From: Candidatus Liberimonas magnetica
Lineage (GTDB): Bacteria; Elusimicrobiota; Endomicrobiia; Endomicrobiales; JAFGIL01
Reading direction: 5' to 3'
Assembly: GCA_020523885.1 (NCBI GenBank)
Contig: JAJAPY010000016.1
Coordinates: 10,359 to 74,358 of the forward strand
DNA length: 64,000 nucleotides
Shown here: piece by piece, positions 665 to 62,960 of the stretch
Numbering within the stretch: the stretch's first letter is position 1
Layout: each line of letters starts with the position of its first letter
The notes under the pieces: generated by a model
Databases searched by the model: none
Told to the model about the DNA's origin: nothing
Seen by the model: the letters and a program-made list of their open reading frames with translations, nothing else
Program-made: the position numbers and the translations under genes

Positions 665-693
665 TTGACTAAAAGTATTTATTTAAGTATAAT
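665..693 (+). promoter_or_regulatory. Sigma70-type promoter candidate upstream of the rnf operon
   Basis: TTGACT (665-670), 17-nt spacer, TATAAT (688-693). Confidence 0.5.
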
Positions 694-703
694 TTTTTAA
701 CAT

Positions 704-733
704 TAGGCAGATTAGAGTCTGCCTATTTTTTTT
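704..733 (+). terminator. Intrinsic-terminator-like hairpin with U-tract (terminator of upstream gene or leader attenuator)
   Basis: TAGGCAGA-ttagag-TCTGCCTA 8-bp stem followed by T8 (726-733). It lies about 10 nt downstream of the predicted -10 box. Confidence 0.55.
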
Positions 734-787
734 AATTTTATCATGTCAAATTAATAAATAGATTTGAGCAGGATTATCAATAAGAAA

Positions 788-2116
788 ATGAAAAAAGCAT
801 TCAAATTTTACGGTGGGGTTTACCCTCCTGAAAATAAAATAACTGCCGAAAAATCCATAGAAGTCATGCCTGTTCCTGATAAAGTGGCATTGCCGCTTAT
901 CCAGCATACCGGGATAAAATGTAAAGCTCTTGTTTCAAGAGGCGATACAGTGCTTCTGGGGGAGGAGATAGCCGAAGCTCAAGGGCATATTACAGCTCCC
1001 GTACATGCTTCTGTTTCAGGGAAAGTCAGTGATATTACGGCTTACCTGCATCCGTACCTGGGTGTACCGGTAGAGGCCATAGTAATAGAATCAGACGGAA
1101 AAGATGAAAAGGTAAAACCTAAAAGAGTTTATGACGCTTATTTCCGCTGTGCGCAGAAAGAGCTTATAAGTGCCATAAAGGATGCGGGGATAACAGGGCT
1201 TGGAGGTGCGGCATTCCCTACCCATGTAAAGCTTTCTCCTCCAAAAGACTCTGAAATAGATTTCCTCATAATAAACGGCTGCGAATGCGAGCCCTATATT
1301 ACCTCTGATGACAGGCTTATGCAGGAGCATTCGAAAGAAGTAGTAGAAGGCGCAAAGATAATGATGTATATACTCGGTGCGGTAAAATGCATCATAGCTA
1401 TAGAAGACAACAAACCGCTTGCCATAGAAATAATAAAAAATATAGTTTTCAACGAGCCGAACATAGACCTGGCTGTGCTTAAGGCTCATTACCCTCAAGG
1501 CTCAGAAAAACAGCTTATAAAAGCTCTGACCGGCAGGGTAGTACCTTCTAATAAGCTGCCATTTAATAGCGGTGTTATAGTTAATAATGTGGCTACCGCG
1601 TATGCGGTAAGCCGTGCTATAAAGGAAGGGGAAACTTTAACTTCAAGGATAATAACGGTAAGCGGTAAGGGAATCAATAATCCTAAAAACCTGAAAGTGA
1701 GGCTCGGTACTCTTTTAAGCGATATTGCCGATTATTGCGGAGGGCTTACTGATGATCTGGCGCAGATAGTGATGGGCGGGCCGATGGTGGGGATCAGCAT
1801 GCCCTCGCTTAATATTCCGGTTATAAAAGGAACCACCGGTATTTTGTTCTTTTCAAAGAAAGAGGCTATAAAAAGGGAATATTCCGATTGTTTCCGCTGC
1901 GGAAGGTGCGTCAGGGTATGCCCCATGGAACTTTTCCCGAACCAGCTGAGCGTTTTTATTGAAAATAATTATATTGAAGAGTCAAAACAGTTCTACCCAA
2001 TGGAATGCATCGAGTGCGGGTGCTGCAGTTATGTGTGCCCTGCCAACAGGCCTATCGTTCAGCAGATAAGGTTTATAAAATATAAGATTTGCCAGGAGCA
2101 AAAAACGGAAAAATAA
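788..2116 (+). CDS. rnfC: Rnf electron transport complex subunit C
   Basis: GLGGAAFP nucleotide-binding motif. Two C-terminal CxxCxxCxxxCP motifs (CFRCGRCVRVCP, CIECGCCSYVCP). First gene of an rnfCDGEAB array. ATG 788 preferred over the TTG at 764 used by the ORF track. Confidence 0.9.
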   Translation: MKKAFKFYGGVYPPENKITAEKSIEVMPVPDKVALPLIQHTGIKCKALVSRGDTVLLGEEIAEAQGHITAPVHASVSGKVSDITAYLHPYLGVPVEAIVIESDGKDEKVKPKRVYDAYFRCAQKELISAIKDAGITGLGGAAFPTHVKLSPPKDSEIDFLIINGCECEPYITSDDRLMQEHSKEVVEGAKIMMYILGAVKCIIAIEDNKPLAIEIIKNIVFNEPNIDLAVLKAHYPQGSEKQLIKALTGRVVPSNKLPFNSGVIVNNVATAYAVSRAIKEGETLTSRIITVSGKGINNPKNLKVRLGTLLSDIADYCGGLTDDLAQIVMGGPMVGISMPSLNIPVIKGTTGILFFSKKEAIKREYSDCFRCGRCVRVCPMELFPNQLSVFIENNYIEESKQFYPMECIECGCCSYVCPANRPIVQQIRFIKYKICQEQKTEK

Positions 2117-3078: not shown

Positions 3079-3100
3079 GGTTTTGAAAAATCCAATAACC

Positions 3101-3190
3101 CTTGATTATGGTGATTAACTACAAGATTACAATGATCAATTATCTTAGAAGTATCACCGTAATCAAAGTTATGAATCTCTGTAATCAGGA
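3101..3190. repeat. Stutter-arm inverted repeat, GATTACA dialect
   Basis: The left arm cttgattatggtgattaactacaagattacaatgatc is mirrored by the right arm atcaccgtaatcaaag...ctctgtaatcagg, in the rnfD/rnfG spacer. Confidence 0.7.
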
Positions 3191-4430: not shown

Positions 4431-4454
4431 AGCGTTGAGCGTATAGAATCTCCA

Positions 4455-4513
4455 GGTTTAAGGTGTAAGGGTAAGGTTTAAGATTTAAAACTTACCCCTT
4501 ACTCCTTATCCCT
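4455..4513. repeat. Stutter-arm inverted repeat, AAGG/CCTT dialect (single copy)
   Basis: ggtttaaggtgtaagggtaaggtttaag ... cttaccccttactccttatccc in the rnfE/rnfA spacer. Confidence 0.6.
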
Positions 4514-4534
4514 GTTTTTATCATGGAGTTATAA

Positions 4535-5137: not shown

Positions 5138-5188
5138 ATTTAATAATGCCTTTAACTTTAATTTTGCATTTTGATATTTTCAATTTGA
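5138..5188. repeat. TGCAAAAT-dialect element, core box plus right arm only
   Basis: tttaataatgcctttaactttaattttgcattttgatattttcaatttga. It matches the core and right arm of the elements at 7613, 9096, 11164 and 25202. Confidence 0.65.
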
Positions 5189-5197
5189 ATTAGAAAT

Positions 5198-6040
5198 ATG
5201 ATTATTGACCCTCTCATACTACATTCAATATTATTTTTAGGAGGTCTTGGTTTTATTTTAGGGATCGGGCTTGGTTCAATATCGCAAAAACATTTTTCAA
5301 ACCCTGACCTGCGCCGGGAAAGGCTTTTTAAGCTTCTACCAGGCACAAATTGCGGAGCTTGCGGTTTTTCCGGATGCAGCGCTTATTCATCTGCTTTATT
5401 AAATAATGAAACTGAAACAGATAAGTGTACTTCTTTAAAACATGGAAATAAACTTGAAATATCAAAATTATTGGGTATACCTGAGAAAAGCTCTGAACGT
5501 AAAACAGCAGTCATATTTTGTGCAGGCGGCAGAGAATGCAAAAATAAAATTGACTATCGCGGAATTAAAAGCTGCTCAATGACCTTGTTGGAGTTTGGCG
5601 GAAACAAGGCGTGCAGCAGGGGTTGCCTCGGGTTTGATGACTGCATAACAGCATGCAGGTTCGGTGCCATAGCAAAAAAGACCAAAGGAGATGTCCCTGT
5701 AATAGATACGAACAAATGTATTGCCTGCGGGGATTGTGTAAATGCCTGCCCGAACGGTCTGATACAGCTTGTGCCTGATAAGTTCAATTATCACATACTT
5801 TGCCGGACACAGGACAGGGTCACAGATGTAAAGAATTTCTGTTCAATAGGTTGTATCGGGTGTGGGATATGCGTTAAAACCTGCCCAAAGAAAGATATTT
5901 TAATTGAAGAGAACCTTGCCTACATGAAGTATAAAGAGTGTGATAACTGCGGGCTTTGCGCTCAAAAATGCCCGACTAAGAGTATCTCATTTATTAAACC
6001 CGCTGTAGTTTCAACTAATTTTATTAATTCGGTTGATTAA
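5198..6040 (+). CDS. rnfB: Rnf complex subunit B (polyferredoxin type)
   Basis: N-terminal TM helix, CGACGFSGC cluster motif, then CIACGDCVNACP, CIGCGICVKTCP and CDNCGLCAQKCP ferredoxin motifs. Confidence 0.85.
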   Translation: MIIDPLILHSILFLGGLGFILGIGLGSISQKHFSNPDLRRERLFKLLPGTNCGACGFSGCSAYSSALLNNETETDKCTSLKHGNKLEISKLLGIPEKSSERKTAVIFCAGGRECKNKIDYRGIKSCSMTLLEFGGNKACSRGCLGFDDCITACRFGAIAKKTKGDVPVIDTNKCIACGDCVNACPNGLIQLVPDKFNYHILCRTQDRVTDVKNFCSIGCIGCGICVKTCPKKDILIEENLAYMKYKECDNCGLCAQKCPTKSISFIKPAVVSTNFINSVD

Positions 6041-6061
6041 ATTAAAAAATAATAGTATAAT
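6033..6061 (+). promoter_or_regulatory. Sigma70-type promoter candidate for rpsB-tsf
   Basis: TTGATT (6033-6038), 17 nt, TATAAT (6056-6061). Overlaps the rnfB stop codon. Confidence 0.45.
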
Positions 6062-6175
6062 ATCAAATCCAAAAATACACACACTCCCGGATTTTCTTCA
6101 AAGTCCCCGGTCCTGGACTGGGGTTGAAGGGAAGATGAACGGAGTGGAGGAAAAAACTAAGGAGGGAGTAAAGGT

Positions 6176-7612: not shown

Positions 7613-7711
7613 AAATGAAAAGTGCAAAATGAAAAATGAAAAATAGCATAAAATCTTTTTAATAAAAGCCTTTAACCTTAATTTTTCATTTTAAATTTTG
7701 CATTTTTCATT
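7613..7711. repeat. Stutter-arm inverted repeat, TGCAAAAT dialect (simple form)
   Basis: Left arm aaatgaaaagtgcaaaatgaaaaatgaaaaat. Core tttaataaaagcctttaaccttaatttt. Right arm tcattttaaattttgcatttttcatt. Ends 8 nt before the GGAGG of pyrH. Confidence 0.85.
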
Positions 7712-8463: not shown

Positions 8464-8525
8464 GGCTCGTCTCTTCCCGCCTGATCGGCGGATAAACTGG
8501 CGAGCCCGCCAGTGAGGCGGGGAGG
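8464..8525 (+). promoter_or_regulatory. GC-rich structured leader upstream of frr
   Basis: Outer pairing GGCTCG/CGAGCC encloses hairpin CCGCC-tgatc-GGCGG. A second hairpin, CCCGCC-agtga-GGCGGG, has a 3' arm that overlaps the GGGAGG SD. Confidence 0.45.
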
Positions 8526-9095: not shown

Positions 9096-9193
9096 AAATG
9101 CAAAATAAAAAGTGCAAAATGAAAAATTAAGGAAAAATCCATTAATAAAAGTTTTAAGATTAATTTTGCATTTTAATATTTGCAATTTGCATT
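9096..9193. repeat. Stutter-arm inverted repeat, TGCAAAAT dialect (simple form)
   Basis: aaatgcaaaataaaaagtgcaaaatgaaaaattaagg ... ttaataaaagttttaagattaattttgcattttaatatttgcaatttgcatt. Abuts the GGAGG of the ferredoxin gene. Confidence 0.85.
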
Positions 9194-9382: not shown

Positions 9383-9407
9383 GTTCTGCTGAAAAAATCA
9401 TCAGACC

Positions 9408-9483
9408 CTGATTACAACGATTACACAGATTAATCATCGATGAAGTTTCTGTGTAATCTGCCTTTACAATCCGTGTAATCATG
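9408..9483. repeat. Stutter-arm inverted repeat, GATTACA dialect
   Basis: The left arm ctgattacaacgattacacagattaatcat is mirrored by the right arm ttctgtgtaatctgcctttacaatccgtgtaatcatg. Confidence 0.75.
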
Positions 9484-9507
9484 ACCGTTGAGGATTTTTC
9501 AACGGTC
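9483..9507 (+). terminator. 9-bp hairpin without a clear U-tract, just upstream of uppS
   Basis: GACCGTTGA-ggatttt-TCAACGGTC. Confidence 0.3.
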
Positions 9508-10241: not shown

Positions 10242-10248
10242 AACAACA

Positions 10249-10325
10249 GTCTTGAGTAATGTGTCTTGAGTCGTGAGAAAGAAATTGTTTTAGGCTCAGG
10301 ACTTAGGACTTAGGACTTAGGACTC
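10249..10325. repeat. Stutter-arm inverted repeat, GTCTTGAG / GGACTTAG dialect
   Basis: Left arm gtcttgagtaatgtgtcttgagtcgtgag. Right arm ctcaggacttaggacttaggacttaggactca. The arms pair only if G:U pairs on the + strand are allowed. Confidence 0.7.
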
Positions 10326-11163: not shown

Positions 11164-11270
11164 AAAATAATGCAAATTGAAAATTGCAAAATGAAAAATT
11201 AAGGAATAAAAACTTATTTAATAAAAGTCGTTAACCTTAATCTTGCATTTTTTATTTTGCAATTTTCATT
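11164..11270. repeat. Stutter-arm inverted repeat, TGCAAAAT dialect (simple form)
   Basis: aaaataatgcaaattgaaaattgcaaaatgaaaaattaagg ... tttaataaaagtcgttaaccttaatcttgcattttttattttgcaattttcatt. Confidence 0.85.
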
Positions 11271-11291: not shown

Positions 11292-12443
11292 GTGAAAAAA
11301 ATAGTCATTCTCGGCTCGACCGGTTCTATCGGATGCCAGGCAATTAATGTCATAAAACGGCTGAGAGGGGAAATAGAAATAGCCGGCCTTACCACCTATT
11401 CAAATCTGGCCTTGCTGAAAAAACAGATAAGAGTATGCCGTCCTCAGATAGTGTCGGTATGGAAAGAAGAACAGGCTTTGGAATTGAACGAGTGGTGCAA
11501 AAGAAATAAGATCAAGCTTGAAATACTGCATGGCCTTGAAGGGCTTGTAGAAATTGCCGGCTGCGCCGCATCTGACATGGTCCTTTCTGCGGTAGTCGGC
11601 TCGATAGGTCTTAAACCACTTCTTGCGGCTATTAAGAGCAAGAAAAATATAGCTTTGGCAAATAAAGAAGCGCTGGTCATAGCCGGCGATATTATAATGG
11701 CCGAAGCAAAAAAAAATAAAGTTAAGCTGATTCCTGTAGACAGCGAGCATTCGGCGGTATTCCAATGTCTGAAACAAGAGGATGCAAAAACAGTTCATAA
11801 GATCATTTTAACGGCTTCTGGCGGCCCCTTTTACAGGTATAACAGCTCTCATTCAGATATTAAAGTTTCACAAGCCCTGGACCATCCTACATGGAAGATG
11901 GGGCAAAAGATAACGATAGATTCAGCAACTTTGATGAACAAGGGTCTTGAAGCTATTGAAGCTCATCATCTGTTCAATATCGGGTTTGATAAAATAGAAA
12001 TAGTCATTCATCCTCAATCCATAGTCCATTCAATGGTTGAATTTATAGATACTACCGTGTTGGCTCATTTGTCCTATCCTACTATGGAATTGCCTATACA
12101 GTATGCTCTAACATATCCGGAAAGGTGTAAGTTGCCTTTAAGAAGACTTGATTTATCCGTTATTAAAAGATTGGAGTTCGATGCCCCTGATTTTGACAGG
12201 TTCCCGTGTCTGAAACTTGCACTAAATGCAGGAAAGATATCCGGTACAATGCCTGCTGTCATGAATGCGGCGAACGAGAAAGCAGTAAGGTTTTTTTTAG
12301 ATGGAAAAATAAAGTTTACCGATATTGCAAAAATAATAAAAAAAGTCATGTCGCTTCATAAAACTATAGAAAACCCGTCTTTAGATGATATATTTGCAGC
12401 AGATTTATGGGCCAGGGAAGTAACTAGAGCGTTTAGCGGATAG
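11292..12443 (+). CDS. dxr: 1-deoxy-D-xylulose 5-phosphate reductoisomerase
   Basis: ILGSTGSIG NADPH motif, LANKEALV, DSEHSA, HPTWKMG motifs. GTG start. Confidence 0.95.
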   Translation: MKKIVILGSTGSIGCQAINVIKRLRGEIEIAGLTTYSNLALLKKQIRVCRPQIVSVWKEEQALELNEWCKRNKIKLEILHGLEGLVEIAGCAASDMVLSAVVGSIGLKPLLAAIKSKKNIALANKEALVIAGDIIMAEAKKNKVKLIPVDSEHSAVFQCLKQEDAKTVHKIILTASGGPFYRYNSSHSDIKVSQALDHPTWKMGQKITIDSATLMNKGLEAIEAHHLFNIGFDKIEIVIHPQSIVHSMVEFIDTTVLAHLSYPTMELPIQYALTYPERCKLPLRRLDLSVIKRLEFDAPDFDRFPCLKLALNAGKISGTMPAVMNAANEKAVRFFLDGKIKFTDIAKIIKKVMSLHKTIENPSLDDIFAADLWAREVTRAFSG

Positions 12444-12518
12444 CGTAGAGCGGATAGGAAAAACAAAGTCTTTCTGTTTTGTTGTTTACTATACGCTATA
12501 CGCTGAACGCTCTACGCT
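12426..12518. repeat. Stutter-arm inverted repeat, AGCGTAGAGCG dialect
   Basis: Left arm agagcgtttagcggatagcgtagagcggatagg, which overlaps the last dxr codons. Right arm ctatacgctatacgctgaacgctctacgct. Confidence 0.8.
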
Positions 12519-13591: not shown

Positions 13592-13600
13592 AGGATAAAT

Positions 13601-13730
13601 ACTAAACTCTAAATCCTAAACAAACTCAAAACTCAATTAACAAAAACTAAAAAATACAACTGGATTTGTTTTGAATTTGAAGCTTTGAGTATTTGAGTTT
13701 ATCTAGAGTTTAGGATTTAGTGTTTAGGGT
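13601..13730. repeat. Stutter-arm inverted repeat, CTAAACTC / GAGTTTAG dialect
   Basis: Left arm actaaactctaaatcctaaacaaactcaaaactcaa. Right arm ttgagtatttgagtttatctagagtttaggatttagtgtttaggg. The same units appear in both arms but in a permuted order. Confidence 0.75.
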
Positions 13731-15404: not shown

Positions 15405-15520
15405 AAATTTCGAATCTCGAATATCGAAATCCGAAAAAAAATCAATATCAAATAGCAAATGAATCAAAATTGTTTTTTATTTAATATTTTTTCGAAATTC
15501 GAAATTGCTTATTCGAGATT
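15405..15520. repeat. Stutter-arm inverted repeat, TTCGAAAT dialect
   Basis: Left arm aaatttcgaatctcgaatatcgaaatccgaaaaaaaa. Right arm ttttttcgaaattcgaaattgcttattcgagatt. Confidence 0.8.
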
Positions 15521-15540: not shown

Positions 15541-17262
15541 ATGAAGATATCGAAATTATTTCTGCCAACTTTACGGGAAGTCCCGGCTGATGCGGATGTT
15601 ATATCTGCAAAACTTATGTTAAGGTCCGGGATGATTAGAAAAGTATCTTCCGGTATCTATGAATGGCTCCCGCTCGGTTTAAAAGTATTAAAAAAAGTCG
15701 AGGAAGTGGTCAGGCTGGAAATGAATGCCATAGGAGGCCAGGAGGTCTGGTTTCCGCTGCTCCTTCCAAAAGAATTGTGGGAAGAGACCGGGCGCTGGAA
15801 TGTGTATGGGAAAGAGCTTTTCAGGATCAAAGACAGAAAAAACTCCGAGTTTTGCCTGGGACCCACTCACGAAGAAGCAGTTACTGACCTTGTAAGAAGA
15901 GATGTGCGCTCTTACAGGCAATTGCCTCTTATGCTTTACCAGTTCGGCACAAAGTTCAGAGATGAGGTCAGGCCGAGGTTCGGCGTGATGAGGGCAAGGG
16001 AATTTTATATGAAAGACGCCTATTCTTTCCATGCGGATGAAAAGGATGCGGAAAATTATTACCTGAAAGCCTTTGAAGCTTATAAAAAGATATGCGAAAG
16101 GTGCGGGTTTAAATACCGCGCAGTTGAGGCTACCAGCGGAGCTATTGGAGGCGCGTTCTCGCATGAGTTTATGGTGCTTGCCGAAACCGGAGAAGAAGAA
16201 ATAGCGTCATGCCTGTGCGGTTACGGAGCTAATACAGAAAAAACAGAATGCATTAAAACAAGTGCGGAGTGCCAAGTTCGGAGTTCGGAGCAAGAACAAC
16301 TTCAGGAAATTCTTACACCTAACATAAAGACTGTTGAAGAAGTAGGGGCTTTTTTAAAGGAAAAACCTTCGCAATTCATAAAGACGATGATTTATTTGGC
16401 TGACGGCGAACCTGTTATAGCGCTTGTACGCGGCGACTATGAGATAAACGAGCATAAACTTCAATCGGTGCTTAACTGCTCTATCCTGGCTTTGGCGGAT
16501 GAGCAAACGATAGAAAAAATAACAGGGGCACCTCTTGGTTTTGCCGGTCCGGTCAAGCTTAAAGATAATAGCGTTAAGATCATTGCGGACTATTCTGTTG
16601 AATTTATCCTTAATGGAATTTCAGGTGCGAACAGGAAAGATTATCATCTTGTAAATATAAACATAAACAGGGATTTTAAGCCCGGCGTTATTGCCGATAT
16701 AAGAAAGGTGGTCAAAGGCGATGCCTGCCCGCGGTGCAATAAAGAACTCAAATTTAACAGAGGGATCGAAGTAGGGCATACTTTCAAACTGGGAACTAAG
16801 TATTCAAAATCCATGAAAGCGGCATATCTTGACGAGCAGGGAAAAGAAAAACTGATGGTGATGGGCTGTTACGGTATCGGAGTATCCCGTATAGTCGCAG
16901 CAACGATAGAACAGTCTAATGATGAGAACGGTATCATCTGGCCTGTCCCGCTTGCCCCTTTTGAGGTAATAATCGTTCCGATAAACTGGCTTGAGGAAAA
17001 TACCAGGAAAACAAGCGAGAAACTCTATAATGAACTTTTAGAAAAAGACATCGACGTTATTCTAGATGACAGGGAAGAGCGTGCCGGAATGAAGTTTAAA
17101 GATGCAGACCTTATCGGTATCCCTTACCGCATTACGATAAGCGACCGGAACCTTAAAGATAACAAATGTGAACTTAAAGCCAGGTGGGAGAAAAAAGAAG
17201 AATCCAAGCTGATTAATGTTGACGAGATAGTAGATGTCATAATACAGCTGTTAAAAAAATAG
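15541..17262 (+). CDS. proS: Prolyl-tRNA synthetase (bacterial type with INS editing domain)
   Basis: MKISKLFLPTLRE N-terminus, class II motifs (FRDEVRPRFGVMRAREF, GCYGIGVSR). ATG 15541 preferred over the track start at 15505. Confidence 0.95.
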   Translation: MKISKLFLPTLREVPADADVISAKLMLRSGMIRKVSSGIYEWLPLGLKVLKKVEEVVRLEMNAIGGQEVWFPLLLPKELWEETGRWNVYGKELFRIKDRKNSEFCLGPTHEEAVTDLVRRDVRSYRQLPLMLYQFGTKFRDEVRPRFGVMRAREFYMKDAYSFHADEKDAENYYLKAFEAYKKICERCGFKYRAVEATSGAIGGAFSHEFMVLAETGEEEIASCLCGYGANTEKTECIKTSAECQVRSSEQEQLQEILTPNIKTVEEVGAFLKEKPSQFIKTMIYLADGEPVIALVRGDYEINEHKLQSVLNCSILALADEQTIEKITGAPLGFAGPVKLKDNSVKIIADYSVEFILNGISGANRKDYHLVNININRDFKPGVIADIRKVVKGDACPRCNKELKFNRGIEVGHTFKLGTKYSKSMKAAYLDEQGKEKLMVMGCYGIGVSRIVAATIEQSNDENGIIWPVPLAPFEVIIVPINWLEENTRKTSEKLYNELLEKDIDVILDDREERAGMKFKDADLIGIPYRITISDRNLKDNKCELKARWEKKEESKLINVDEIVDVIIQLLKK

Positions 17263-17302
17263 TCGTAAATCTTTGTAATCGTAATAAAAAGAGGTGCTGA
17301 TT

Positions 17303-17452
17303 ATGAGTTTAGTAAAAGAGTTTTTACAGTTTGCCTGGAAAGAAAAGAAATACTGGATAATACCTATGGTCCTGGTTTTCCTTATCCTGGGGTTGTTGAT
17401 TATTTTCTTTGAAAGTGCAACGGTAGTCCCTTTTGTTTATACACTTTTCTAA
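17303..17452 (+). CDS. DUF5989-like 49-aa single-TM protein (below the ORF-track cut-off)
   Basis: Hand translation: MSLVKEFLQFAWKEKKYWIIPMVLVFLILGLLIIFFESATVVPFVYTLF. GAGGTG SD upstream. The TAA stop overlaps the next ATG (TAATG). The C-terminal PFVYTLF matches my memory of DUF5989. Confidence 0.6.
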   Translation: MSLVKEFLQFAWKEKKYWIIPMVLVFLILGLLIIFFESATVVPFVYTLF

Positions 17453-44835: not shown

Positions 44836-44855
44836 AGATCTTAGGGTGTCTATCC

Positions 44856-46505: not shown

Positions 46506-49463
46506 ATGACTATAATTAAAAAAATAATATTCATAGGTATTATTTTACGTACGATATCTGCCAGCTCTGTTTTCGGCCAGGATGTCATTACTACTTTTGC
46601 CGGAACCGGAACTTACGGTTATTCAGGCGACGGAGGGTTGGCCGCTTCAGCCAGGCTATATAATCCTAAAGGAGTAGCGGTTGATAATAATTCGGGAGTT
46701 GTTTATATCTGTGATAGTAATAATCATCGAATACGGAAAGTAAACGCTTCGGGAATAATATCAACTTTTGCCGGAACGGGAACAGCCGGTTTTTCAGGAG
46801 ACGGCAGCCTTGCAACTTCAGCTGAACTTGATACACCTTATGGAGTAGCGGTTGACACTTCAGGGAATGTCTATATCTCTGACCAGGGTAACAACCGGAT
46901 ACGGAAAGTAAACACTTCAAGCACAATAGCAACTTTTGCCGGAGGCGGGACCGGTGGTTTAGGCGACGGCGGCCCTGCAACCTCCGCCCAACTTAATAGT
47001 CCTTACGGAGTAGCGGTTGATTCTTCAGGGAATGTCTATATCTCTGACCAGGGTAACAACCGGATACGGAAAGTAAACACTTCAGGCACAATAGCAACTT
47101 TTGCCGGAGGCGGGACCGGCGGTTTAGGCGACGGCGGCCCTGCAGTCTTAGCTCAACTTAATAACCCTTATGGAGTAACGGTTGACACTCAAGGGAGTGT
47201 CTATATCTCTGATTATACTAATAATTTAATCAGGAAAGTAAACGCTTCAGGCACAATAGCAACTTTTGCCGGAGGCGGGGTCGGCGGTTTAGGCGACGGC
47301 GGCCCTGCAACTTCAGCCCGGCTCACAAATCCCAGTGGTATAGCGGTTGATGATTTAGGGAATGTTTATATTTCTTCCTTTATTGATTTTCGAATACGGA
47401 AAGTGGACACTTCAGGAATAATATCAACTTTTGCGGGGACTGGAATTGCAGGTGATTCAGGCGACGGAGGGAAAGCTACGTTAGCTCAGATAAGTAATTC
47501 TTACGGAGTAGCTGTCGATACTTCAGGGCATGTTTATATCTCTGACTATAACAGTCATCGAATAAGGAAAGTTATTTTGGGGCGCGGGGCTATTGCAGGG
47601 CAGGTATTAGATTCTTATGGAAAAACAGCGGTTTCGGGAGTGCTCATAGAAATATTGCAGTCGGGTGTGCTTAAATCAAGTACGACAAGCGATACGTTCG
47701 GAAATTATGCAGTCAAAGTTGATACCGGGGTTTATAATGTGCGGGCTTCTTTGACAGGCTACCAACCTCAGACTAAAAACGGGTATAATGTAAAAACTAG
47801 TTCGACTGTAACGGTAAATTTTTCCCTTGCACGGATCATCGGCGTTATTTCCGGAAAAGTAACAAAATCGGACGGAACAACGGCGGTTTCAGGAGCGCTC
47901 GTAGAAGCAATGCAATCCGGAGTAACAAAAGCAAGCATTAATACGAATACAAGCGGCAATTACTCAATGAAAATAACTCCGGGGACGTATGATGTAAGAG
48001 TGTCTTCTACAGGTTATGAGCCCCAGCTTAAAACAGGTTATACCGTAGCCGATGGTTCAACTGCCACAGTAAATTTTTCTCTTCTGCAGATCCCAGGTGT
48101 TATTTCAGGCAAAGTGACAAAATCAGACGGAACAACACCTGTCCCAGGAGCCCTTATAGAAATATTACAGTCCGGCGCAGTTAAAGCAAGCGCAACAAGC
48201 GATATAAGCGGCAATTATTCTATAACAACAGATGTGGGAACCTATAATGTAAAGGCATCTAAAACAGGATACCTGTCCCAGACAAAAACCGGGTATGACG
48301 TGACAACCGGTTCGACAAAAACCGTTGATTTTTTGCTTGTCGAGCTTTCTGCAGCTAAAACAGGCGTCATTTCAGGTAAAGTTACACGGTCAAATGGCAC
48401 AACTCCTGTCTCCGGAGCGATGGTAGAAGCGTTAATTTCAGGAATAACAAAAGCAAATGCAACAACAGATGCAAGCGGCAATTATTCTATAAGAGCAGGG
48501 ACGGGGACATATAATGTAAAGGCATCTAAAGCAGGGTACATGTCACAGACAAAAACCGGATACTATGTGGCAGACGGTTCGACAAAAACCGTTAATTTTT
48601 CGCTTGTCGAGCTTGCGGCAGCCAAAACCGGGGTTATTTCAGGGAACGTGACACGGTCGGACGGCATAACACCTGCTTCCGGAGCGGTAGTAGAAGCATT
48701 AATTTCCGGAATAACAAAAGCAAATGTAACAACAGATCTGTACGGCAATTATTCTATAACAGTAGGGACGGGGGCCTATGACGTAAAGGCATCTAAAGGC
48801 GGGTACCTGTCTCAAACAAAAACAGGGTATGACGTGACAACAGGATCGACAAAAACCGTTAATTTTTCGCTTGTAGAGCTTTCAGGGGGCAGCTATGGCG
48901 AAATTGCCGGAAGAGTGACAAAATCCGACGGAGTGACACCTGTTTTTGGTGCGGTAATTGAGGTATTTGAGGCAGGCGTGGAAAGATCAAATGCGATGAC
49001 CGATATAGACGGTTATTATTACCTGGCGGTATCGACAGGGATTTATGATATAAAAGCTTCTATTACAGGATTTCAATCTCAGACAAAAACCTTTTATGCG
49101 CTGGACAGCGCGTCGTTAGTTACTGTAGATTTTTCTTTAGTTGAGGAAATACAGGAAAAACAGGAGATACCTCACGACGACAAAGTGATCGCTCTCGGAG
49201 ATAACTTGTTTAATCCGAGGGCGGGCGGGACATGCAAGGTATGGTTTAACCTTTCACAACCGGGCGATGTAACGATAAAAGTGTATGATTTTATGGGCTC
49301 TCAGGTAAGAACCGGCCTGGACAATGCAAACCATGCTTCGGGGATATCCCAGTGGAACTGGGACGGTAAAGATAATGACGGGAAAATCGTCCCGCCCGGC
49401 ATCTATATTCTGTATTTTAAATACCCGGGTGGAATTATAAAAAGAAAAATAGGCGTAAAATGA
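46506..49463 (+). CDS. Secreted protein: six NHL repeats, six CarboxypepD_reg-like domains, FlgD-Ig-like C-terminal domain (paralog of 21012-23195)
   Basis: Signal peptide, six ...VYIS.. NHL blades, six GVISGKVT.SDGTT.VSGA.VE... domains. The tail WNWDGKDNDGKIVPPGIYILYFKYPGG is nearly the same as the paralog's. Confidence 0.85.
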   Translation: MTIIKKIIFIGIILRTISASSVFGQDVITTFAGTGTYGYSGDGGLAASARLYNPKGVAVDNNSGVVYICDSNNHRIRKVNASGIISTFAGTGTAGFSGDGSLATSAELDTPYGVAVDTSGNVYISDQGNNRIRKVNTSSTIATFAGGGTGGLGDGGPATSAQLNSPYGVAVDSSGNVYISDQGNNRIRKVNTSGTIATFAGGGTGGLGDGGPAVLAQLNNPYGVTVDTQGSVYISDYTNNLIRKVNASGTIATFAGGGVGGLGDGGPATSARLTNPSGIAVDDLGNVYISSFIDFRIRKVDTSGIISTFAGTGIAGDSGDGGKATLAQISNSYGVAVDTSGHVYISDYNSHRIRKVILGRGAIAGQVLDSYGKTAVSGVLIEILQSGVLKSSTTSDTFGNYAVKVDTGVYNVRASLTGYQPQTKNGYNVKTSSTVTVNFSLARIIGVISGKVTKSDGTTAVSGALVEAMQSGVTKASINTNTSGNYSMKITPGTYDVRVSSTGYEPQLKTGYTVADGSTATVNFSLLQIPGVISGKVTKSDGTTPVPGALIEILQSGAVKASATSDISGNYSITTDVGTYNVKASKTGYLSQTKTGYDVTTGSTKTVDFLLVELSAAKTGVISGKVTRSNGTTPVSGAMVEALISGITKANATTDASGNYSIRAGTGTYNVKASKAGYMSQTKTGYYVADGSTKTVNFSLVELAAAKTGVISGNVTRSDGITPASGAVVEALISGITKANVTTDLYGNYSITVGTGAYDVKASKGGYLSQTKTGYDVTTGSTKTVNFSLVELSGGSYGEIAGRVTKSDGVTPVFGAVIEVFEAGVERSNAMTDIDGYYYLAVSTGIYDIKASITGFQSQTKTFYALDSASLVTVDFSLVEEIQEKQEIPHDDKVIALGDNLFNPRAGGTCKVWFNLSQPGDVTIKVYDFMGSQVRTGLDNANHASGISQWNWDGKDNDGKIVPPGIYILYFKYPGGIIKRKIGVK
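46836..47165 (+). repeat. Intragenic tandem repeat, 2 x 165 bp (one NHL blade each)
   Basis: The copies start at 46836 and 47001. By eye I count about a dozen mismatches, including one run of 62 identical nt. A third, more diverged copy follows. Confidence 0.85.
48336..48869 (+). repeat. Intragenic tandem repeat, 2 x 267 bp (one CarboxypepD_reg-like domain each)
   Basis: Units begin with cttgtcgagctt at 48336 and 48603; the next unit starts at 48870. The encoded units, LVEL(S/A)AAKTGVISG..., are highly similar. Confidence 0.8.
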
Positions 49464-49519
49464 GACAACACAACAAGACACAAGACACAAGACTATACTA
49501 TATTGCTTAGGAATTATGG

Positions 49520-50880: not shown

Positions 50881-50991
50881 GTCATTCCTGCCCCCGATTT
50901 AGGGCATTCGAGGGTAAACTCCAGCAGGAATCCAGAGAAGTTGTTTGTCGTCGATATTCCTGGATTCCCGCTAAAGGCATGCAGGAATGAC
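50881..50991. repeat. Nested inverted repeat with GTCATT...AATGAC termini (REP/MITE-like)
   Basis: Outer pair GTCATTCCTGC / GCAGGAATGAC. Inner pair GCAGGAATCCAG / CCTGGATTCCCGC. Confidence 0.75.
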
Positions 50992-51033: not shown

Positions 51034-51062
51034 TTGATTTTTGTGCGTAAAATAGATAAAAT
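51034..51062 (+). promoter_or_regulatory. Sigma70-type promoter candidate for the 51126 gene
   Basis: TTGATT (51034-51039), 17 nt, TAAAAT (51057-51062). Confidence 0.35.
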
Positions 51063-55180: not shown

Positions 55181-55209
55181 TTGAAATATGATTGAAAATT
55201 GAGTATAAT
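55181..55209 (+). promoter_or_regulatory. Sigma70-type promoter candidate for the MoxR operon
   Basis: TTGAAA (55181-55186), 17 nt, TATAAT (55204-55209). Confidence 0.5.
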
Positions 55210-56249: not shown

Positions 56250-56267
56250 ACTAAGCGGAACTAAAGT

Positions 56268-56387
56268 AAATTCAAAATGAAAAATGAAAAATGCAAAATT
56301 AATGTGTCCGCTATGGCGGACGTATTAAAATTATTCGCAAAAGGCGAATACCTCAATTTTGCATTTTGCATTTTGCAATTTGCATTT
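56268..56387. repeat. TGCAAAAT-dialect element, complex form with two internal GC hairpins
   Basis: Left arm aaattcaaaatgaaaaatgaaaaatgcaaaattaatg. Hairpins GTCCGC-tatg-GCGGAC (56306-56321) and ATTCGC-aaaag-GCGAAT (56333-56349). Right arm caattttgcattttgcattttgcaatttgcattt. Confidence 0.85.
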
Positions 56388-56416
56388 AAGTCAGCTGCAA
56401 TAGGCGGTCTGACTTT

Positions 56417-57292
56417 ATGAAATTTTTCGATCCGGTTTCTCTGGCAAAACTTGCAAATATGCATATCCGGGCAAAATCCGTGGTAGAAGGCCTTTTGTCC
56501 GGGCTGCATAACAGCCCTTATAAAGGGCATTCGCTTGAGTTTTCCCAGCACAGGGAATATTCCTACGGCGACGAGTTAAGGCATATTGACTGGAAGGTTT
56601 TCGGCAGGTCCGATAAATTCTTCATAAAACAATTCCAGGATGAAACAAATTTAAGGGGCTATATACTTTTAGACGCTTCAGGTTCCATGAACTTTGCCTC
56701 AAGCGGGCATATAACCAAGCTTGATTATGCCAAATTTCTTGCCGCTTCATTGGCCTACCTTTTCCTTCACCAGGAGGATTCCGCATCTTTGAGCGCTTTT
56801 GATTCCGGCCTTCGTTTTTATCTTCCTCCAAGGCACCAACTCTCGCATCTTTCGGTAATCTTTGATAAATTAGAGGAATTATCAAGCGGAGGCGAGACCG
56901 AGATAGAAAATGTCCTGAAGCTGTTCGGCCAATATTTAAAAAAGCGGGGGCTTATAATCTTTATCTCCGACCTCTTAGCGGACCCGCAGAACGTCCTTAA
57001 GGCCTTAAAATACCTGCGTTTCAGGCACCATGAGATAATCGTCCTTCAGGTGCTTGACCCAAGTGAGGTAAAATTCCCTTTCCTGGGAGACAATCTTTTC
57101 ATCCATCTGGAAAATGAAAAAGAAATCTTTGCCGATGCGGATACGCTGCGGGCAGAATACATAAAACTTTTCAAACAATTCCTGGATGAATACAAAACCG
57201 GTTTCCGCAAGGCCGATATAGATTATTATTTGATAACCACAGATACACCGGTCGAGATCGCCCTGGGACAGTGCTTGAGCAATAGAAGCTAA
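56417..57292 (+). CDS. DUF58 domain protein (MoxR partner)
   Basis: REYSYGDELRHIDWKVFGRSDKFFIKQF motif typical of DUF58; immediately follows MoxR. Confidence 0.85.
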   Translation: MKFFDPVSLAKLANMHIRAKSVVEGLLSGLHNSPYKGHSLEFSQHREYSYGDELRHIDWKVFGRSDKFFIKQFQDETNLRGYILLDASGSMNFASSGHITKLDYAKFLAASLAYLFLHQEDSASLSAFDSGLRFYLPPRHQLSHLSVIFDKLEELSSGGETEIENVLKLFGQYLKKRGLIIFISDLLADPQNVLKALKYLRFRHHEIIVLQVLDPSEVKFPFLGDNLFIHLENEKEIFADADTLRAEYIKLFKQFLDEYKTGFRKADIDYYLITTDTPVEIALGQCLSNRS

Positions 57293-57296: not shown

Positions 57297-57390
57297 CATA
57301 GCGTAGAGCGTATAGCGGATAGCGTAGAGAAAAGCTAAAACATGAACAGACTTTGACGTTCCTATACGCTCTACGCTATCCGCTATCCGC
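57297..57390. repeat. Stutter-arm inverted repeat, AGCGTAGAGCG dialect
   Basis: Left arm catagcgtagagcgtatagcggatagcgtagag. Right arm cctatacgctctacgctatccgctatccgc. Same dialect as 12426-12518. Confidence 0.85.
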
Positions 57391-57404
57391 TTTCAGTTAA
57401 ATAT

Positions 57405-59405: not shown

Positions 59406-59482
59406 AGGGGAAATCATAGATGTCCCAATTTGGTGTCATACCCGCGAACAGACTGTGTCGCAATCGGTAAAAATGAAGGTTT

Positions 59483-59560
59483 TGTCATTGCGAGGCGTCT
59501 TTTGCCGAAGCAATCCATATTTTAACGACGAGATTGCTTCGCCTTCGGCTCGCAATGACA
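59483..59560. repeat. Nested inverted repeat with TGTCATTGC...GCAATGACA termini (REP/MITE-like)
   Basis: Outer pair TGTCATTGCGAG / CTCGCAATGACA. Inner pair GCCGAAGCAATC / GATTGCTTCGCC. Followed by the hairpin CCTCTCC-tgcc-GGAGAGG. Confidence 0.8.
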
Positions 59561-59609
59561 TTCTGGCACCTCCTCTCCTGCCGGAGAGGTTTCACAGGAG
59601 AAGAATACT

Positions 59610-60347: not shown

Positions 60348-60476
60348 GGCAATTTCGAAATCCGAAGCACTAATTTCGAAAAAAATCGCAAACTTAAAAA
60401 AGCAAAATATTTTTTCTTTTTGCCTATTGGTCATTGATTATTTTTTCGAGATTCGAAATTGGTTATTCGAGATTGG
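60348..60476. repeat. Stutter-arm inverted repeat, TTCGAAAT dialect
   Basis: Left arm ggcaatttcgaaatccgaagcactaatttcgaaaaaaatcg. Right arm ttattttttcgagattcgaaattggttattcgagattgg. Confidence 0.8.
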
Positions 60477-60484: not shown

Positions 60485-62644
60485 ATGAGCATTGAACTAT
60501 TTAAATTTGATTATATTTTTGCTCTGTCTGTGCTTTTAGCCGCAGGCGGGCTGGTTTTGCTTTGGCATCTGCAGAACAGGAAGGCTGTTTTTTTATGGAG
60601 GGCGGCCAACATTGTAGTCCTTTTACTGCTTATCTGCCAGCCTGTGCTGGTAAATTATTCGAGCGACGACAGGCCCCTGGTGGCTGTTGCCGTAGATGTT
60701 TCTCCGAGCATGGTGACAGCAGGCCGGATAAAGACAGTGGAAGATATCCTGGAGCGAAACTATGAATCTTTGAGCGAAAAGCTAAGGCTTAAAAACTATG
60801 TTTTTTCGTCTTTGTCAGGCCAGTTAAATACCGGCCTTGATAAATATTTGAAAGACAAAAAATCAGCGGAATCGCTGGGTTTTTATACGGACCTCTACAG
60901 GTCGCTGTGGGACATAAGAAGAGAGAACGGCGAGAAATTGTCCGGCATAATACTTCTTTCGGACGGGAACCATAACGCCGGTACCCTGCCGGAGTCCTGG
61001 ATAAAAGAGCTGAATATCCCTGTTTTCCCTGTCAATTTAGGAAATAAAGGCGGCTTAAAAGACCTGGCCATAAACGGTTTAAAAGTCAGCGATTTTGCTT
61101 TCAAGAACCTTCCTTTGAAGATAACGGTAAACTTAAGCGCTATCGGTTTTTCTGGCAGGTATGCCACGGTAAATTTAAGAAGGATTGATTCGAACGCAAC
61201 ACTTGCGTCGCATACGGCCAAAATAAACTCGGATAATGAGAGTTTTGATGCCGTCCTTGATTATACGCCGAGCCTGAGCGGCAGGTTCATGTATGAAGCC
61301 GAAGCCCTGCCTTTAAAAGGCGAAACAACCCTTGCAAATAACAAAAAACGATTTTATCTTGATATAATCCGCGACAAAATACGGGTGCTTTACCTCTGCG
61401 GCCAGCCGGGCCCGGAATATTCTTTTTTAAGGCACTATCTCAAAAACGACCCGCTGGTTGAGCTGGTATCTTTTGTTATCTTAAGGAACCCTGAGAACAT
61501 TACCCTGGTATCGGATTACGACCTGTCCTTGATACCGTTTCCGGTGGAAACGATATTTGTCAGTGACCTGAAGAATTTTGATGTCTTTATACTTGATAAC
61601 TTTACTTACCGGAGGTTCGGTTTCCTGCCGGAATACCTTGCCAATATCAAGAGATGGGTGGTTGAAAAGGGCGGCGGGCTTATCATGATAGGAGGAGAAA
61701 ATTCTTTCGGGAAAGGCGGCTGGGCCGGGACTCCTCTGGAAAGTATCCTGCCTGTGATATTCGATAAACCGCAGGACGAAGACGAGAACGGGCTGTTCAG
61801 CCCTAAAATAGAGGATACGCGGCAGGACATAATGAGGTTAAACGATGACGAAAAAAAGAACCTGGAACTCTGGAAAAACGCCCCGCAGCTTGAGGGCTGC
61901 CAGGCGCTTGTTAAAAACTTAAATGCAAAGGTATTGCTGCGCCATCCATGGAAGAACTGGGTTGTGCTGGCCTCGTGGGATATAGGAAAAGGCAGGGCTG
62001 CCGCGCTTGGGGCCAATACGACCTGGCGCTGGGCTTTAGCCGGCCAATCAACGGAATTGTATTATAGTTTCTGGAAAAATATGATCCGCTACCTTTCGCA
62101 TTCCGAAAAATCGTTCGAAGGGAAGATAAACTTAGACAGGCCGGAATACTTTTCCGGGCAGGAATACAGCTTAAAGCTAAGGGGGAACAAAGACCTGAAT
62201 AGGAAAAATATGAAGCTTGTCCTGGTGGAGCCGTCAGGACAAAGGTCTGAACTGGAGGTTAACAAAATAAGCGAGAAAGAATGGGAAGCCAAAGGCGTAT
62301 TTAGGGCCAGCGGGAAATACTCTTTTCAGTTTTATTTAAATGAGAACGGGGTTTTTGCTGCCAAGGATTCTGCCGGCGTGGACGTAAAACCATTTTTATT
62401 GCAGGAAAAAACGAACCTGAAACAGAACGATGAGCTCTTAAACAGCGCAGCCGCAGAGTCGGGCGGGGAATACTTTGATAAAGATGAAATATTGGTAAAT
62501 AAGTTGTATAGTAAATTAAGGGATATAAAAAAGAGGGCTGTAATTAACAAAACAACTCTGTGGTCAAACCCCTGGCTTATGGCTCTTATTATCTTGAGTT
62601 TTTTAGGCGAGTGGATATACAGAAGAAAAATCGGGCTGTGGTGA
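60485..62644 (+). CDS. Membrane protein with a VWA-like N-domain and a class-I glutamine-amidotransferase-like domain (Bat-operon terminal gene)
   Basis: N- and C-terminal TM helices, DVSPS MIDAS-like motif, IRVLYLCGQP...FDVFILDNF...GGGLIMIGGENSFG segment. Confidence 0.55.
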   Translation: MSIELFKFDYIFALSVLLAAGGLVLLWHLQNRKAVFLWRAANIVVLLLLICQPVLVNYSSDDRPLVAVAVDVSPSMVTAGRIKTVEDILERNYESLSEKLRLKNYVFSSLSGQLNTGLDKYLKDKKSAESLGFYTDLYRSLWDIRRENGEKLSGIILLSDGNHNAGTLPESWIKELNIPVFPVNLGNKGGLKDLAINGLKVSDFAFKNLPLKITVNLSAIGFSGRYATVNLRRIDSNATLASHTAKINSDNESFDAVLDYTPSLSGRFMYEAEALPLKGETTLANNKKRFYLDIIRDKIRVLYLCGQPGPEYSFLRHYLKNDPLVELVSFVILRNPENITLVSDYDLSLIPFPVETIFVSDLKNFDVFILDNFTYRRFGFLPEYLANIKRWVVEKGGGLIMIGGENSFGKGGWAGTPLESILPVIFDKPQDEDENGLFSPKIEDTRQDIMRLNDDEKKNLELWKNAPQLEGCQALVKNLNAKVLLRHPWKNWVVLASWDIGKGRAAALGANTTWRWALAGQSTELYYSFWKNMIRYLSHSEKSFEGKINLDRPEYFSGQEYSLKLRGNKDLNRKNMKLVLVEPSGQRSELEVNKISEKEWEAKGVFRASGKYSFQFYLNENGVFAAKDSAGVDVKPFLLQEKTNLKQNDELLNSAAAESGGEYFDKDEILVNKLYSKLRDIKKRAVINKTTLWSNPWLMALIILSFLGEWIYRRKIGLW

Positions 62645-62683
62645 AAACAATTGGAAAATTAGGCTGTTGACGGACTCCTAAGG

Positions 62684-62722
62684 TGTCATTGCTTCTCCCG
62701 CAAAGCGGGAGAAGCAATGACA
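62684..62722. repeat. Perfect 18-bp hairpin with TGTCATTGC...GCAATGACA termini
   Basis: TGTCATTGCTTCTCCCGC-aaa-GCGGGAGAAGCAATGACA, 40 nt after the stop of the 719-aa gene. Confidence 0.85.
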
Positions 62723-62932
62723 GAAAATCAAGTTCAGCAACAGCCTCATTTGAAATATTACAATCCCGCAGAATTCACTGAAAAATGCTCGCTCATCACT
62801 GGCTCCACGGTTAAGGAGGTAAAAAATGTAAACCAAACTTCTCAATTGCACATCCCACCAAATCGTCAAAAAACAGGTATCAGTCAAGCCTGCAAGGTCA
62901 AACTAATCAAAAAATTAAATGTAAAAAACCCC

Positions 62933-62960
62933 TTGAATGTTTAATTAAATCTATTATAAT
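62933..62960 (+). promoter_or_regulatory. Sigma70-type promoter candidate for the response regulator
   Basis: TTGAAT (62933-62938), 16 nt, TATAAT (62955-62960). Followed by three aataatc(a/c)aa(a) decamers in the leader. Confidence 0.4.

Follow-up and report, generated by a model that had tools for sequence, protein, structure and literature searches.

In Xanthomonas, arrays of the heptamer GGGAATC form 70-75 inverted pairs per genome, usually with about four units per array, which are capable of folding into stem-loops (Rehm et al. 2015, PMC4692102). The arrays are transcribed, lie near or over stop codons, mostly between open reading frames (ORFs) of the same direction, and are under-represented between divergent ORFs; their length and position vary between close species, and it was suggested that the repeats are avoided where promoters would be disturbed (PMC4692102). 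The repetitive extragenic palindromic (REP) sequences of Escherichia coli are approximately 40% tandem, 60% convergent and 1% divergent; one of them, REP325, stabilises the upstream mRNA and partly terminates transcription, and for about 40% of the convergent REPs a bidirectional terminator is predicted at the same place (bioRxiv 10.64898/2026.03.23.713779). REPs of other genera are located at most 20 bp from 3' ends (PMC3733652). A further group, the TAACTGA repeats of Beggiatoaceae, Cyanobacteria and Bacteroidetes, includes one inverted set among 170 in the Maribeggiatoa genome (MacGregor 2015, PMC4679880). Here, we analyse a 64-kb stretch of the genome of Candidatus Liberimonas magnetica (Elusimicrobiota; contig JAJAPY010000016.1, positions 10,359 to 74,358), called the window in its whole length, which has a GC content of about 41% and carries every long ORF on the + strand. 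Its spacers contain hairpin elements with arms made of tandem heptamers, and these elements and the promoters occupy different spacers. The elements are probably REP-like palindromic repeats, tolerated on the 3' side of genes but eliminated from the DNA of promoters and leaders.

The heptamer-armed elements resemble the Xanthomonas pairs in their tandem 7-nt units, their inverted pairing, their intergenic position near stop codons, their rarity between divergent ORFs, their variation in length and position between related genomes and their presumed transcription. They differ in that Xanthomonas uses one G-rich unit capable of forming a G-quadruplex, whereas the window holds at least nine families, mostly AT-rich or mixed, and no window unit contains four repeated runs of at least three G. 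In addition, some window families have conserved cores and inner GC hairpins, and the host belongs to the Elusimicrobia. With REPs and bacterial interspersed mosaic elements (BIMEs) they share the condition of abundant imperfect palindromes, often mosaics, that are operon-internal or convergent and hardly ever divergent, near 3' ends and patchy between relatives. However, the REP is a unique palindrome of 20-40 bp, while the window arms are tandem heptamers with stems of up to 45 bp; the REP tag GTAG/CGTC is missing from the TGCAAAA, TCGAAAT and TAAGG arms, GTAG being present only within some TAGCG units; and no transposase, RAYT or other, was seen among the ten window proteins domain-scanned, a systematic scan of all window ORFs not having been made. 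Cyanobacterial STRR and TAACTGA repeats are likewise 7-nt, tandem and intergenic, with a unit common to distant phyla and a proposed post-transcriptional role (PMC4679880), but almost all of them are direct and lie just upstream of start codons, whereas the window arrays are mostly inverted and lie just after stops. As for miniature inverted-repeat transposable elements, the length of 60-145 bp, the terminal inverted repeats, the intergenic position and the conserved interior of the TGCAAAA subfamilies are alike; the lack of a recognisable target-site duplication, the unrelated loops of the ATAGCGN copies (among the matches listed from metagenomes) and the 7-nt steps of arm length are not. We know of no parent transposon for the heptamer-armed elements. 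A literature search for the literal heptamer strings yielded no paper, and no account of repeats of this type in Elusimicrobia was found either. The elements are filed here as multi-family, mostly AT-rich inverted heptamer arrays in Elusimicrobia, members of neither the REP nor the Xanthomonas family.

Element architecture and separation from promoters

Two-armed hairpins are present in 19 spacers of the window, and about seven further spacers hold arrays that are weaker or have a single arm. Each arm consists of imperfect tandem heptamers, and in a two-armed element the two arrays stand in inverted orientation. Self-similarity at lags of 7 and 14 nt reaches 0.349 and 0.333, versus about 0.285, in intergenic but not in coding DNA. 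A lag-7 detector found 35 arrays, nearly all of them intergenic, whose best period was 7 in 33 cases, and TRF also reports period-7 arrays. Across the 19 two-armed elements, the arms are 84% complementary (519 matches, 102 mismatches) and enclose loops of 4-99 nt. Arm pairing is 0.77 in register, 0.60-0.62 after a 7-nt shift and 0.48-0.53 after 14 nt, compared with 0.2-0.3 at other shifts; because pairing persists when the arms slide by 7 nt, "stutter", as the first-pass annotation called the arms, is an apt name. Folding was better than that of shuffles in 14 of 16 two-armed elements (z -2.3 to -7.8); promoter spacers gave z values of -2.1 to +1.3 against shuffles. At least nine unit families coexist in the 64 kb (TGCAAAA/TGAAAAA, TAGCGNA, TCGAAAT, TAAGGKT, CTTGAGT/AGGACTT, CTAAAYY, GATTACA-type, GACAACA and ACAAGAC), distributed as follows (no strand is assigned; z is that of the fold).

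3095-3172: rnfD/rnfG hairpin, GATTA-type stutter with loose periodicity; spacer fold -31.1 kcal/mol, z -4.5
4453-4514: rnfE/rnfA, TAAGGKT / CCTTAC units, z -3.2
5160-5191: rnfA/rnfB, TGCAAAA family, right arm only, no hairpin, z -0.13
7614-7711: tsf/pyrH, TGMAAAA family, subfamily a, core TTAAGG..TAATAAAAG..TTAACCTTAA, z -5.2
9097-9193: frr/ferredoxin, subfamily a, z -1.2
9393-9499: ferredoxin/uppS, GATTACA-type stutter hairpins
10248-10324: uppS/cdsA, CTTGAGT / AGGACTT units, z -5.7
11178-11268: cdsA/dxr, subfamily a, z -4.0
12425-12514: dxr/rseP, TAGCGNA family, left arm overlapping the dxr end, z -6.7
13596-13726: rseP/ispG, CTAAAYY / TTTAGGR units, z -5.0
15406-15520: greA/proS, TCGAAAT family, z -2.3
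23196-23222: direct GACAACA heptamer array without inverted partner, z -0.15
25206-25308: rimP/nusA, subfamily a, z -1.4
28888-28928: infB/rbfA, left arm only (ATTGCAA / AATGAAA), no hairpin, z -0.27
31101-31219: truB/ribF mosaic, subfamily b, heptamer arms and two inner GC hairpins, z -7.6
34466-34506: rpsO/pnp, 22-nt direct repeat of GATTACAYAGATTA, no hairpin, z +0.87
36676-36819: downstream of pnp, TCGAAAT family
37329-37424: before the FtsK-like gene, AATTGCA units, z -5.6
44714-44835: mosaic before the gene at 44856, subfamily b, z -7.1
49470-49497: direct ACAAGAC heptamer array without inverted partner, z 0.04
56267-56388: moxR/DUF58 mosaic, subfamily b, z -5.4
57307-57391: DUF58/BatA-VWA, TAGCGNA family, z -7.8
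60350-60475: DUF4159/GATase1-like, TCGAAAT family, z -3.1

The TGCAAAA family comprises two dispersed subfamilies with conserved cores, subfamily a with five copies (71% identity) and subfamily b with three (83% identity). The two inner GC hairpins of subfamily b keep their pairing through compensatory changes (GTCGCC/GGCGAC, GTCCGC/GCGGAC and TCCCGC/GCGGGG). No shared flanking duplication is visible when the copies of either subfamily are aligned, though the repetitive arms leave the boundaries uncertain. The elements occupy their spacers between the stop codon and a point shortly ahead of the Shine-Dalgarno sequence, and the ribosome-binding site stays clear. In the case of truB, the left heptamer arm itself encodes the last 11 codons (EIQNANCKMQN) and the stop (31099-31134), and relatives end differently here. 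In subfamily b the repeat extends beyond the right arm as a small hairpin, AAGTYAGC...GNCTRACTT (31221-31247, 56389-56419 and also 44836-44858), with a Shine-Dalgarno-like G-run in its loop. This hairpin adjoins the start codons of ribF and of the DUF58 gene, which are unrelated; a translation-initiation module of its own may be part of the repeat. All eight asymmetric cores point one way, and the directions of transcription and replication are inseparable here. Of 36 elements taken from four genomes, 28 have the purine-rich arm on the 5' side. The idea of an A-rich arm placed 5' as an orientation marker was rejected, given that an inverted repeat reads alike on both strands. As 7 is not a multiple of 3, the 5' arms were also inspected for stops in three frames, with no significant enrichment (better in 19, equal in 7 and worse in 10).

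Promoters were scored as matches to the sigma-70 -35/-10 consensus out of 12, and significance was obtained by dinucleotide shuffling of each spacer separately, because window-wide matches scarcely exceed the shuffle expectation (e.g. 55 vs 46).

665-693, + strand: promoter-like site before rnfC, TTGACT-17-TATAAT, 11/12, p = 0.004
6033-6061, + strand: promoter-like site before rpsB, TTGATT-17-TATAAT, 10/12, p = 0.016; the -35 overlaps the rnfB stop codon
24603-24631, + strand: rimP promoter, TTGCAA-17-TATTAT, 9/12, p = 0.16
34139-34167, + strand: promoter-like site before rpsO, in a spacer without element, GTGAAA-17-TATAAT, 10/12, p = 0.015
51034-51062, + strand: weak promoter-like site, TTGATT-17-TAAAAT, 9/12, p = 0.30
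55181-55209, + strand: promoter-like site before moxR, TTGAAA-17-TATAAT, 11/12, p = 0.003
62933-62960, + strand: promoter-like site before the response regulator gene, TTGAAT-16-TATAAT, 10/12, p = 0.054

The exclusion test covered 37-38 window spacers of at least 40-50 nt, with an element defined by a lag-7 score of at least 11/14 and a promoter by at least 10/12 matches. Promoters were found in none of the 19 element spacers and in 5 of the 18 others (Fisher p = 0.02). Addition of 9/12 sites with 17-nt spacing changed the counts to 0/19 and 7/18 (Fisher p = 0.003), and a hand-curated list of 26 element spacers gave 0/26 against 5-7 of 11-12 (p 0.002 to 0.0001). When any 9/12 match was accepted, 3-5 element spacers and 7-9 other spacers scored (p ~0.02-0.04); the matches of this grade at 37338 and 44715 are TTGCAA...TAAAAT, that is, arm sequence. 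The same split is seen in the relative L084, where the rimP and rpsO promoter spacers are free of arrays and the element spacers contain at most one 9/12 match, with 16-nt spacing. The lengths of the window spacers are bimodal: either a spacer is no longer than 37 nt or it contains a promoter or a repeat, and nearly all non-coding DNA beyond about 40 nt is promoter/leader or palindromic repeat.

These results bear on several claims of the first-pass annotation. Its central proposal, that promoters and stutter arms exclude each other, is upheld under objective definitions (p 0.02 to 0.003) and in L084, and the exclusion is real and beyond chance. The six promoters that it had picked were all recovered in place by the consensus scan with 11, 10, 9, 9, 11 and 10 of 12 matches, whereas the seventh site, at 34139, was absent from its list. 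At 9/12, the sites 24603 and 51034 are not significant alone. The former site is nevertheless credible because three relatives share its -35, its -10 and its leader hairpin: a CTTGCA/-10 pair followed by a hairpin and a T-run is kept upstream of rimP in L084, L085 and L082. Conservation does not back 51034. The rpsO site has counterparts in L084 (TTTACA-17-TAAAAT, found by the scan) and in L085 (TTTACT-17-TATAAT, found by eye in the spacer 16632-16734). The statement that element spacers lack a good promoter holds at the level of 10/12, which none of them reaches, but 9/12 matches occur in up to five. Among the ten junctions named as carrying stutter arms, rnfA/rnfB, infB/rbfA and rpsO/pnp contain one-armed or direct arrays with no significant hairpin. 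Finally, a terminator scan bore out that most elements lack a canonical U-tract and agreed that they do not look like operon-end terminators: few elements fitted the pattern of GC stem plus U-tract, its matches were confined to the small inner hairpins of a few elements, and the arms are long, AT-rich or mixed, with no T-run after them.

Turnover among relatives and occurrence in distant phyla

The nearest relatives by NusA are Endomicrobiales and Elusimicrobia metagenome-assembled genomes (MAGs) with 72-75% identity. Three genomes at equal distance, L084 (GC 53%), L085 and L082, were used as sister genomes. The gene order rpsB-tsf-pyrH-frr-fdx-uppS-cdsA-dxr-rseP-ispG-greA-proS-rimP-nusA-infB-rbfA-nrnA-truB-ribF-rpsO-pnp is common to the relatives. 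At the junctions where the window has elements, L085 and L082 have none, and the L085 spacers measure 0-68 nt. In a comparison by junction, the L085 spacer has 5 nt against 125 nt in the window for tsf/pyrH, 20 against 105 nt for pyrH/frr, 0 against 130 nt for fdx/uppS, 31 against 122 nt for rimP/nusA and 26 against 85 nt for infB/rbfA. Such compact operons imply that the window elements must be co-transcribed with their neighbours, in agreement with the expectation of the first-pass annotation that the elements lie between genes of one transcript. L085 contains no heptamer arrays at all and L082 only two weak ones without a hairpin. L084, in turn, has two-armed heptamer hairpins at tsf/frr, frr/fdx, fdx/uppS, rimP/nusA and infB/rbfA, but the unit families at the shared junctions differ from those of the window (at rimP/nusA, TAGCGNA in L084 and TGCAAAA in the window). 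This presence and absence, together with the family swaps, indicates that elements are gained, lost or replaced on the time scale of divergence of these genomes.

The distribution beyond the clade was assessed on 80 loci around nusA from many phyla, where the median array density is zero. The density of the window, 0.52 arrays per kb, is equalled or surpassed in L018 and L026, two groundwater "Deltaproteobacteria" MAGs (0.8 and 0.52). Both have an architecture like that of the window where neighbouring genes of the rimP-nusA-infB-rbfA and rpsO-pnp region run in one direction, and no array in the divergent spacer upstream of rimP, and the motifs that they have in common with the window include CTATACGCTATCCGCT and GATTACACAGAT. 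Elements at rimP/nusA and infB/rbfA are therefore common to the window, L084, L018 and L026, four genomes that belong to two phyla.

A metagenome scan for the ATAGCGN family with the pattern TAGCGNATAGCGNA-N20-50-TNCGCTATNCGCTA retrieved at least 120 contigs (L088-L207) from soil, sediment and groundwater. Among the matches listed, the hairpins occur at GC contents of 39-71%, have two to about eight units per arm and enclose unrelated loops. Up to four of them can be present in 4 kb, for example in L156 (6335-10385), beside units such as GGGGATA and GCGAATT. The core of the TGCAAAA family, searched as the exact pattern AAATGMAAAATTAAGG N8-16 TAATAAAAG, had 0 matches in the JGI metagenome collection. 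Placement was analysed for 78 classifiable ATAGCGN copies among the matches listed, with the other spacers of at least 40 nt on the same contigs as background:

tandem spacers: 44 copies, background 115
convergent spacers: 30 copies, background 44
divergent spacers: 4 copies, background 59

The difference from the background is significant (chi-square p = 1.4e-6), with depletion from divergent spacers (p = 6e-7) and enrichment in convergent ones (p = 1.6e-4). Relative to the stop codon, the pattern begins at a median of +4 nt (10th-90th percentile -10 to +28). On independent metagenome data, too, promoter-side DNA is therefore avoided, and what the copies retain is this avoidance and a place just behind a stop codon. 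With 38% of the copies lying between convergent genes, the elements are not specifically intra-operon.

Gene starts, leaders and other repeats of the window

Pfam confirmed the rnfCDGEAB operon and the MoxR-DUF58-BatA/VWA-DUF4159 cluster; no Rfam family reached its gathering threshold anywhere in the window, and a tRNA scan of the window gave no match. Several mechanical ORF starts extend into element arms. The true start of nusA is 25324 and not 25294, as settled by an exact database match to a protein annotated "MAG: Elusimicrobia bacterium", and the FtsK-like gene, with a mechanical start at 37387, probably begins at 37429. Similarly, the ATG of rimP at 24647 falls within the leader hairpin, which implies that the true start is located further downstream. 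Assembly is affected as well. In the independent Logan assembly SRR16235686, contig L001 corresponds to window 16938-31130 with 100% identity, so that it is uninformative about variation in unit number, and it terminates at 31130 within the truB/ribF element arm. Another contig, L087, begins near window 59533, as judged by gene coordinates, within the palindrome spacer 59406-59609. Both breaks are consistent with an assembler confused by many genomic copies.

Between proS and rimP, the window has an extra gene block (17263-24581) with two small ORFs, a carbamoyltransferase, a PMT_2 glycosyltransferase, an NHL/SBBP-repeat protein and a CsgG-like protein, unlike L084 and L085, where the rimP promoter directly follows proS. 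Large surface proteins of the NHL/TEN-NHL and CarboxypepD_reg types contain long tandem repeats in their coding sequence (21099-22061, 46728-47434 and 48183-48883; periods 168, 165 and 267 nt).

Some promoters are followed by structured leaders. A hairpin with a T-run lies just 3' of the -10 of rnfC (699-733), and another occupies the rimP leader (24632-24676), with counterparts at about 9410-9445 in L084 and 9460-9495 in L085. Both look like promoter-proximal attenuators, and the latter is possibly involved in NusA autoregulation of the rimP-nusA-infB operon. The rpsB leader (6080-6150) is structured and G-rich, with a stem CCCCGGTCC...GGACTGGGG, and may serve S2 autoregulation; no Rfam family matches it, and its fold (z -1.65) is not significant. 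Stutters of other periods were also observed, with period 8 just upstream of the rnfC -35 (AGCAAAAA three times, 623-647) and with period 9 in the leader after the 62933 promoter (AATAATCAA three times, 62977-63005).

A second class of palindromes, long and GC-rich, is present at 50881-50991, 59483-59560 and 62656-62751 (GTCATTSC...GSAATGAC and AGGCTGTTGA...CAGCAACAGCCT), and L026, of another phylum, has a similar one (AGGCTGTTGA...TCAACAGCCT). Two of the three lie upstream of the promoter-like sites 51034 and 62933, where they are candidates for genuine operon ends. Small GC hairpins of the form (A/G)TCCCGCC-NNNN-GGCGGGA(T/C), at 8473-8524, 31138-31181, 37310-37323, 44752-44798, 56306-56350 and 63661-63681, occur alone or within mosaic elements and represent a separate REP-like family; L084 has similar ones at 16789-16959.

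Origin of the elements and what they mean

The explanation that we favour, and regard as probable, is that the elements would arise and spread as DNA. Some families would have dispersed with conserved cores, while others share only the unit and vary in copy number, which suggests slippage. Copies would persist only where they are harmless, on the 3' flank, at or just after a stop codon, in same-direction or convergent spacers, and those in promoter or 5'-leader DNA would be removed by selection, leaving the mutual exclusion. The data show the architecture, the rule of placement, the turnover among genomes and the broad occurrence; selection as the cause of the exclusion and any effect on RNA are inferred. 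In a window with one coding strand and compact operons, all the elements would then end up between co-transcribed cistrons. Once there, they could fold within polycistronic mRNAs into stems of 20-45 bp and, by analogy with REPs and BIMEs, block 3'-to-5' exonucleases, cause partial termination or pausing and possibly be cleaved by RNase III. Effects on mRNA stability, termination or processing are plausible on this analogy. An origin as DNA repeats is favoured by the turnover among relatives, the dispersed TGCAAAA subfamilies, the lack of wobble bias in the arm mismatches, the truB stop codon inside an arm and the contig break in the same arm.

Several observations weigh against this explanation. 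Neither a transposase (among the ten proteins scanned) nor target-site duplication nor any other mobility signature was seen, and the loops of the ATAGCGN copies (among the matches listed) are not conserved at all, which is at odds with ordinary copy-and-paste transposition. Selection on structure is hinted at by the compensatory changes in the inner hairpins of subfamily b. The recurrence at rimP/nusA and infB/rbfA could mean function; it could also reflect merely available spacers, all the loci having been sampled around nusA. Besides, the window statistics come from one 64-kb stretch with a single gene orientation.

The main alternative is that of the first-pass annotation, adaptive intra-operon punctuation, according to which selected RNA hairpins set the stability of mRNA segments, their processing by RNase III or otherwise, and translational insulation. 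The elements do lie between tightly linked genes, fill the space from stop to Shine-Dalgarno sequence with the ribosome-binding site free, and form very stable stems (z down to -7.8). Compensatory hairpins, free Shine-Dalgarno sequences and the Shine-Dalgarno-like hairpin that subfamily b places beside two unrelated start codons favour some selection on structure or use; the same operon junctions are occupied in four genomes of two phyla, and an effect of such a kind has been measured for E. coli REP325 (bioRxiv 10.64898/2026.03.23.713779). Yet the same junctions are tightly packed and element-free in L085 and L082 and carry another unit family in L084, 30 of the 78 ATAGCGN copies are convergent and have no downstream cistron, and one-armed and direct arrays occupy the same type of spacer. 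Selection for an RNA stem in the + strand transcript is expected to leave more G:T than A:C mispairs in the arms, but no such wobble bias exists (19 G:T, 18 A:C and 65 transversions). Turnover at the junctions, convergent copies and absence of wobble bias fit gain and loss of REP-like DNA under purifying selection better than designed punctuation, which we consider a doubtful account of the elements; the placement of REP-like repeats in a one-stranded, operon-dense window is what would make them look like punctuation.

A very unlikely alternative is that the elements are terminators or attenuators without U-tract, followed by promoters invisible to a sigma-70 scan, in which case the exclusion would be a limit of recognition. 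Their enrichment between convergent genes and their start at stop codons recall bidirectional terminators, with which about 40% of convergent E. coli REPs coincide by prediction (bioRxiv 10.64898/2026.03.23.713779), and weak 9/12 promoter-like matches lie within some arms. But an unseen promoter would have to be assumed for each of the essential genes, such as pyrH, frr, dxr, nusA and infB, although at most of these junctions the relatives have spacers of 0-31 nt; few elements fit a GC stem with T-run, and the conserved real promoters of rimP and rpsO do fit the sigma-70 consensus. In our view extremely unlikely is a role at the DNA level, with arrays bound by a nucleoid protein, gyrase or recombinase, or extruded as cruciforms, and kept from promoters whose topology they would disturb. 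Strand symmetry, the missing RNA wobble bias and the arithmetic by which three units make 21 bp, about two helical turns, would suit it, and the ATAGCGN unit, kept across 39-71% GC while loops vary, would fit a factor that recognises the unit; however, no candidate binding protein was identified, at least nine unit families in 64 kb would demand many factors, and the link with stop codons is easier to explain via transcription and translation or tolerance of insertion. That the exclusion arose by chance, or from promoters picked by eye after arm-free spacers were seen, has a next to negligible probability, for although two of the six promoters (24603 and 51034) are at chance level, 3-5 element spacers also score with any 9/12 match and overall matches are 55 vs 46 in shuffles, it is largely refuted by the objective p values of 0.02 to 0.003, the repetition in L084 and the divergent depletion (p = 6e-7) over 78 metagenome loci.

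If the elements are REP-like repeats, spacer length in the window reports repeat invasion and not regulation. Gene callers mis-set starts and stops at elements (nusA, rimP, ftsK and truB) and assemblers break contigs there. The placement rule of proteobacterial REPs and Xanthomonas heptamers extends to a distant phylum and to many soil and sediment contigs. A bolder proposal, which we put forward as speculative and rather unlikely, is that heptamer-armed hairpins are a largely undescribed, phylum-spanning class of elements produced by one conserved molecular mechanism. A shared generator working in 7-nt steps could explain ATAGCGN, TCGAAAT and GATTACA-type inverted arrays with unrelated loops in genomes of 39-71% GC, their usually purine-rich 5' arm and their start at stop codons better than ordinary transposition. 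Such a generator might extend both 3' ends at a break on a template, or it might be a nuclease or recombinase specific for the unit. The cell may have put the resulting hairpins to use as marks of the 3' ends of its mRNAs. Most intriguing is the recurrence of identical heptamer units around freely varying loops in genomes from 39% to 71% GC.

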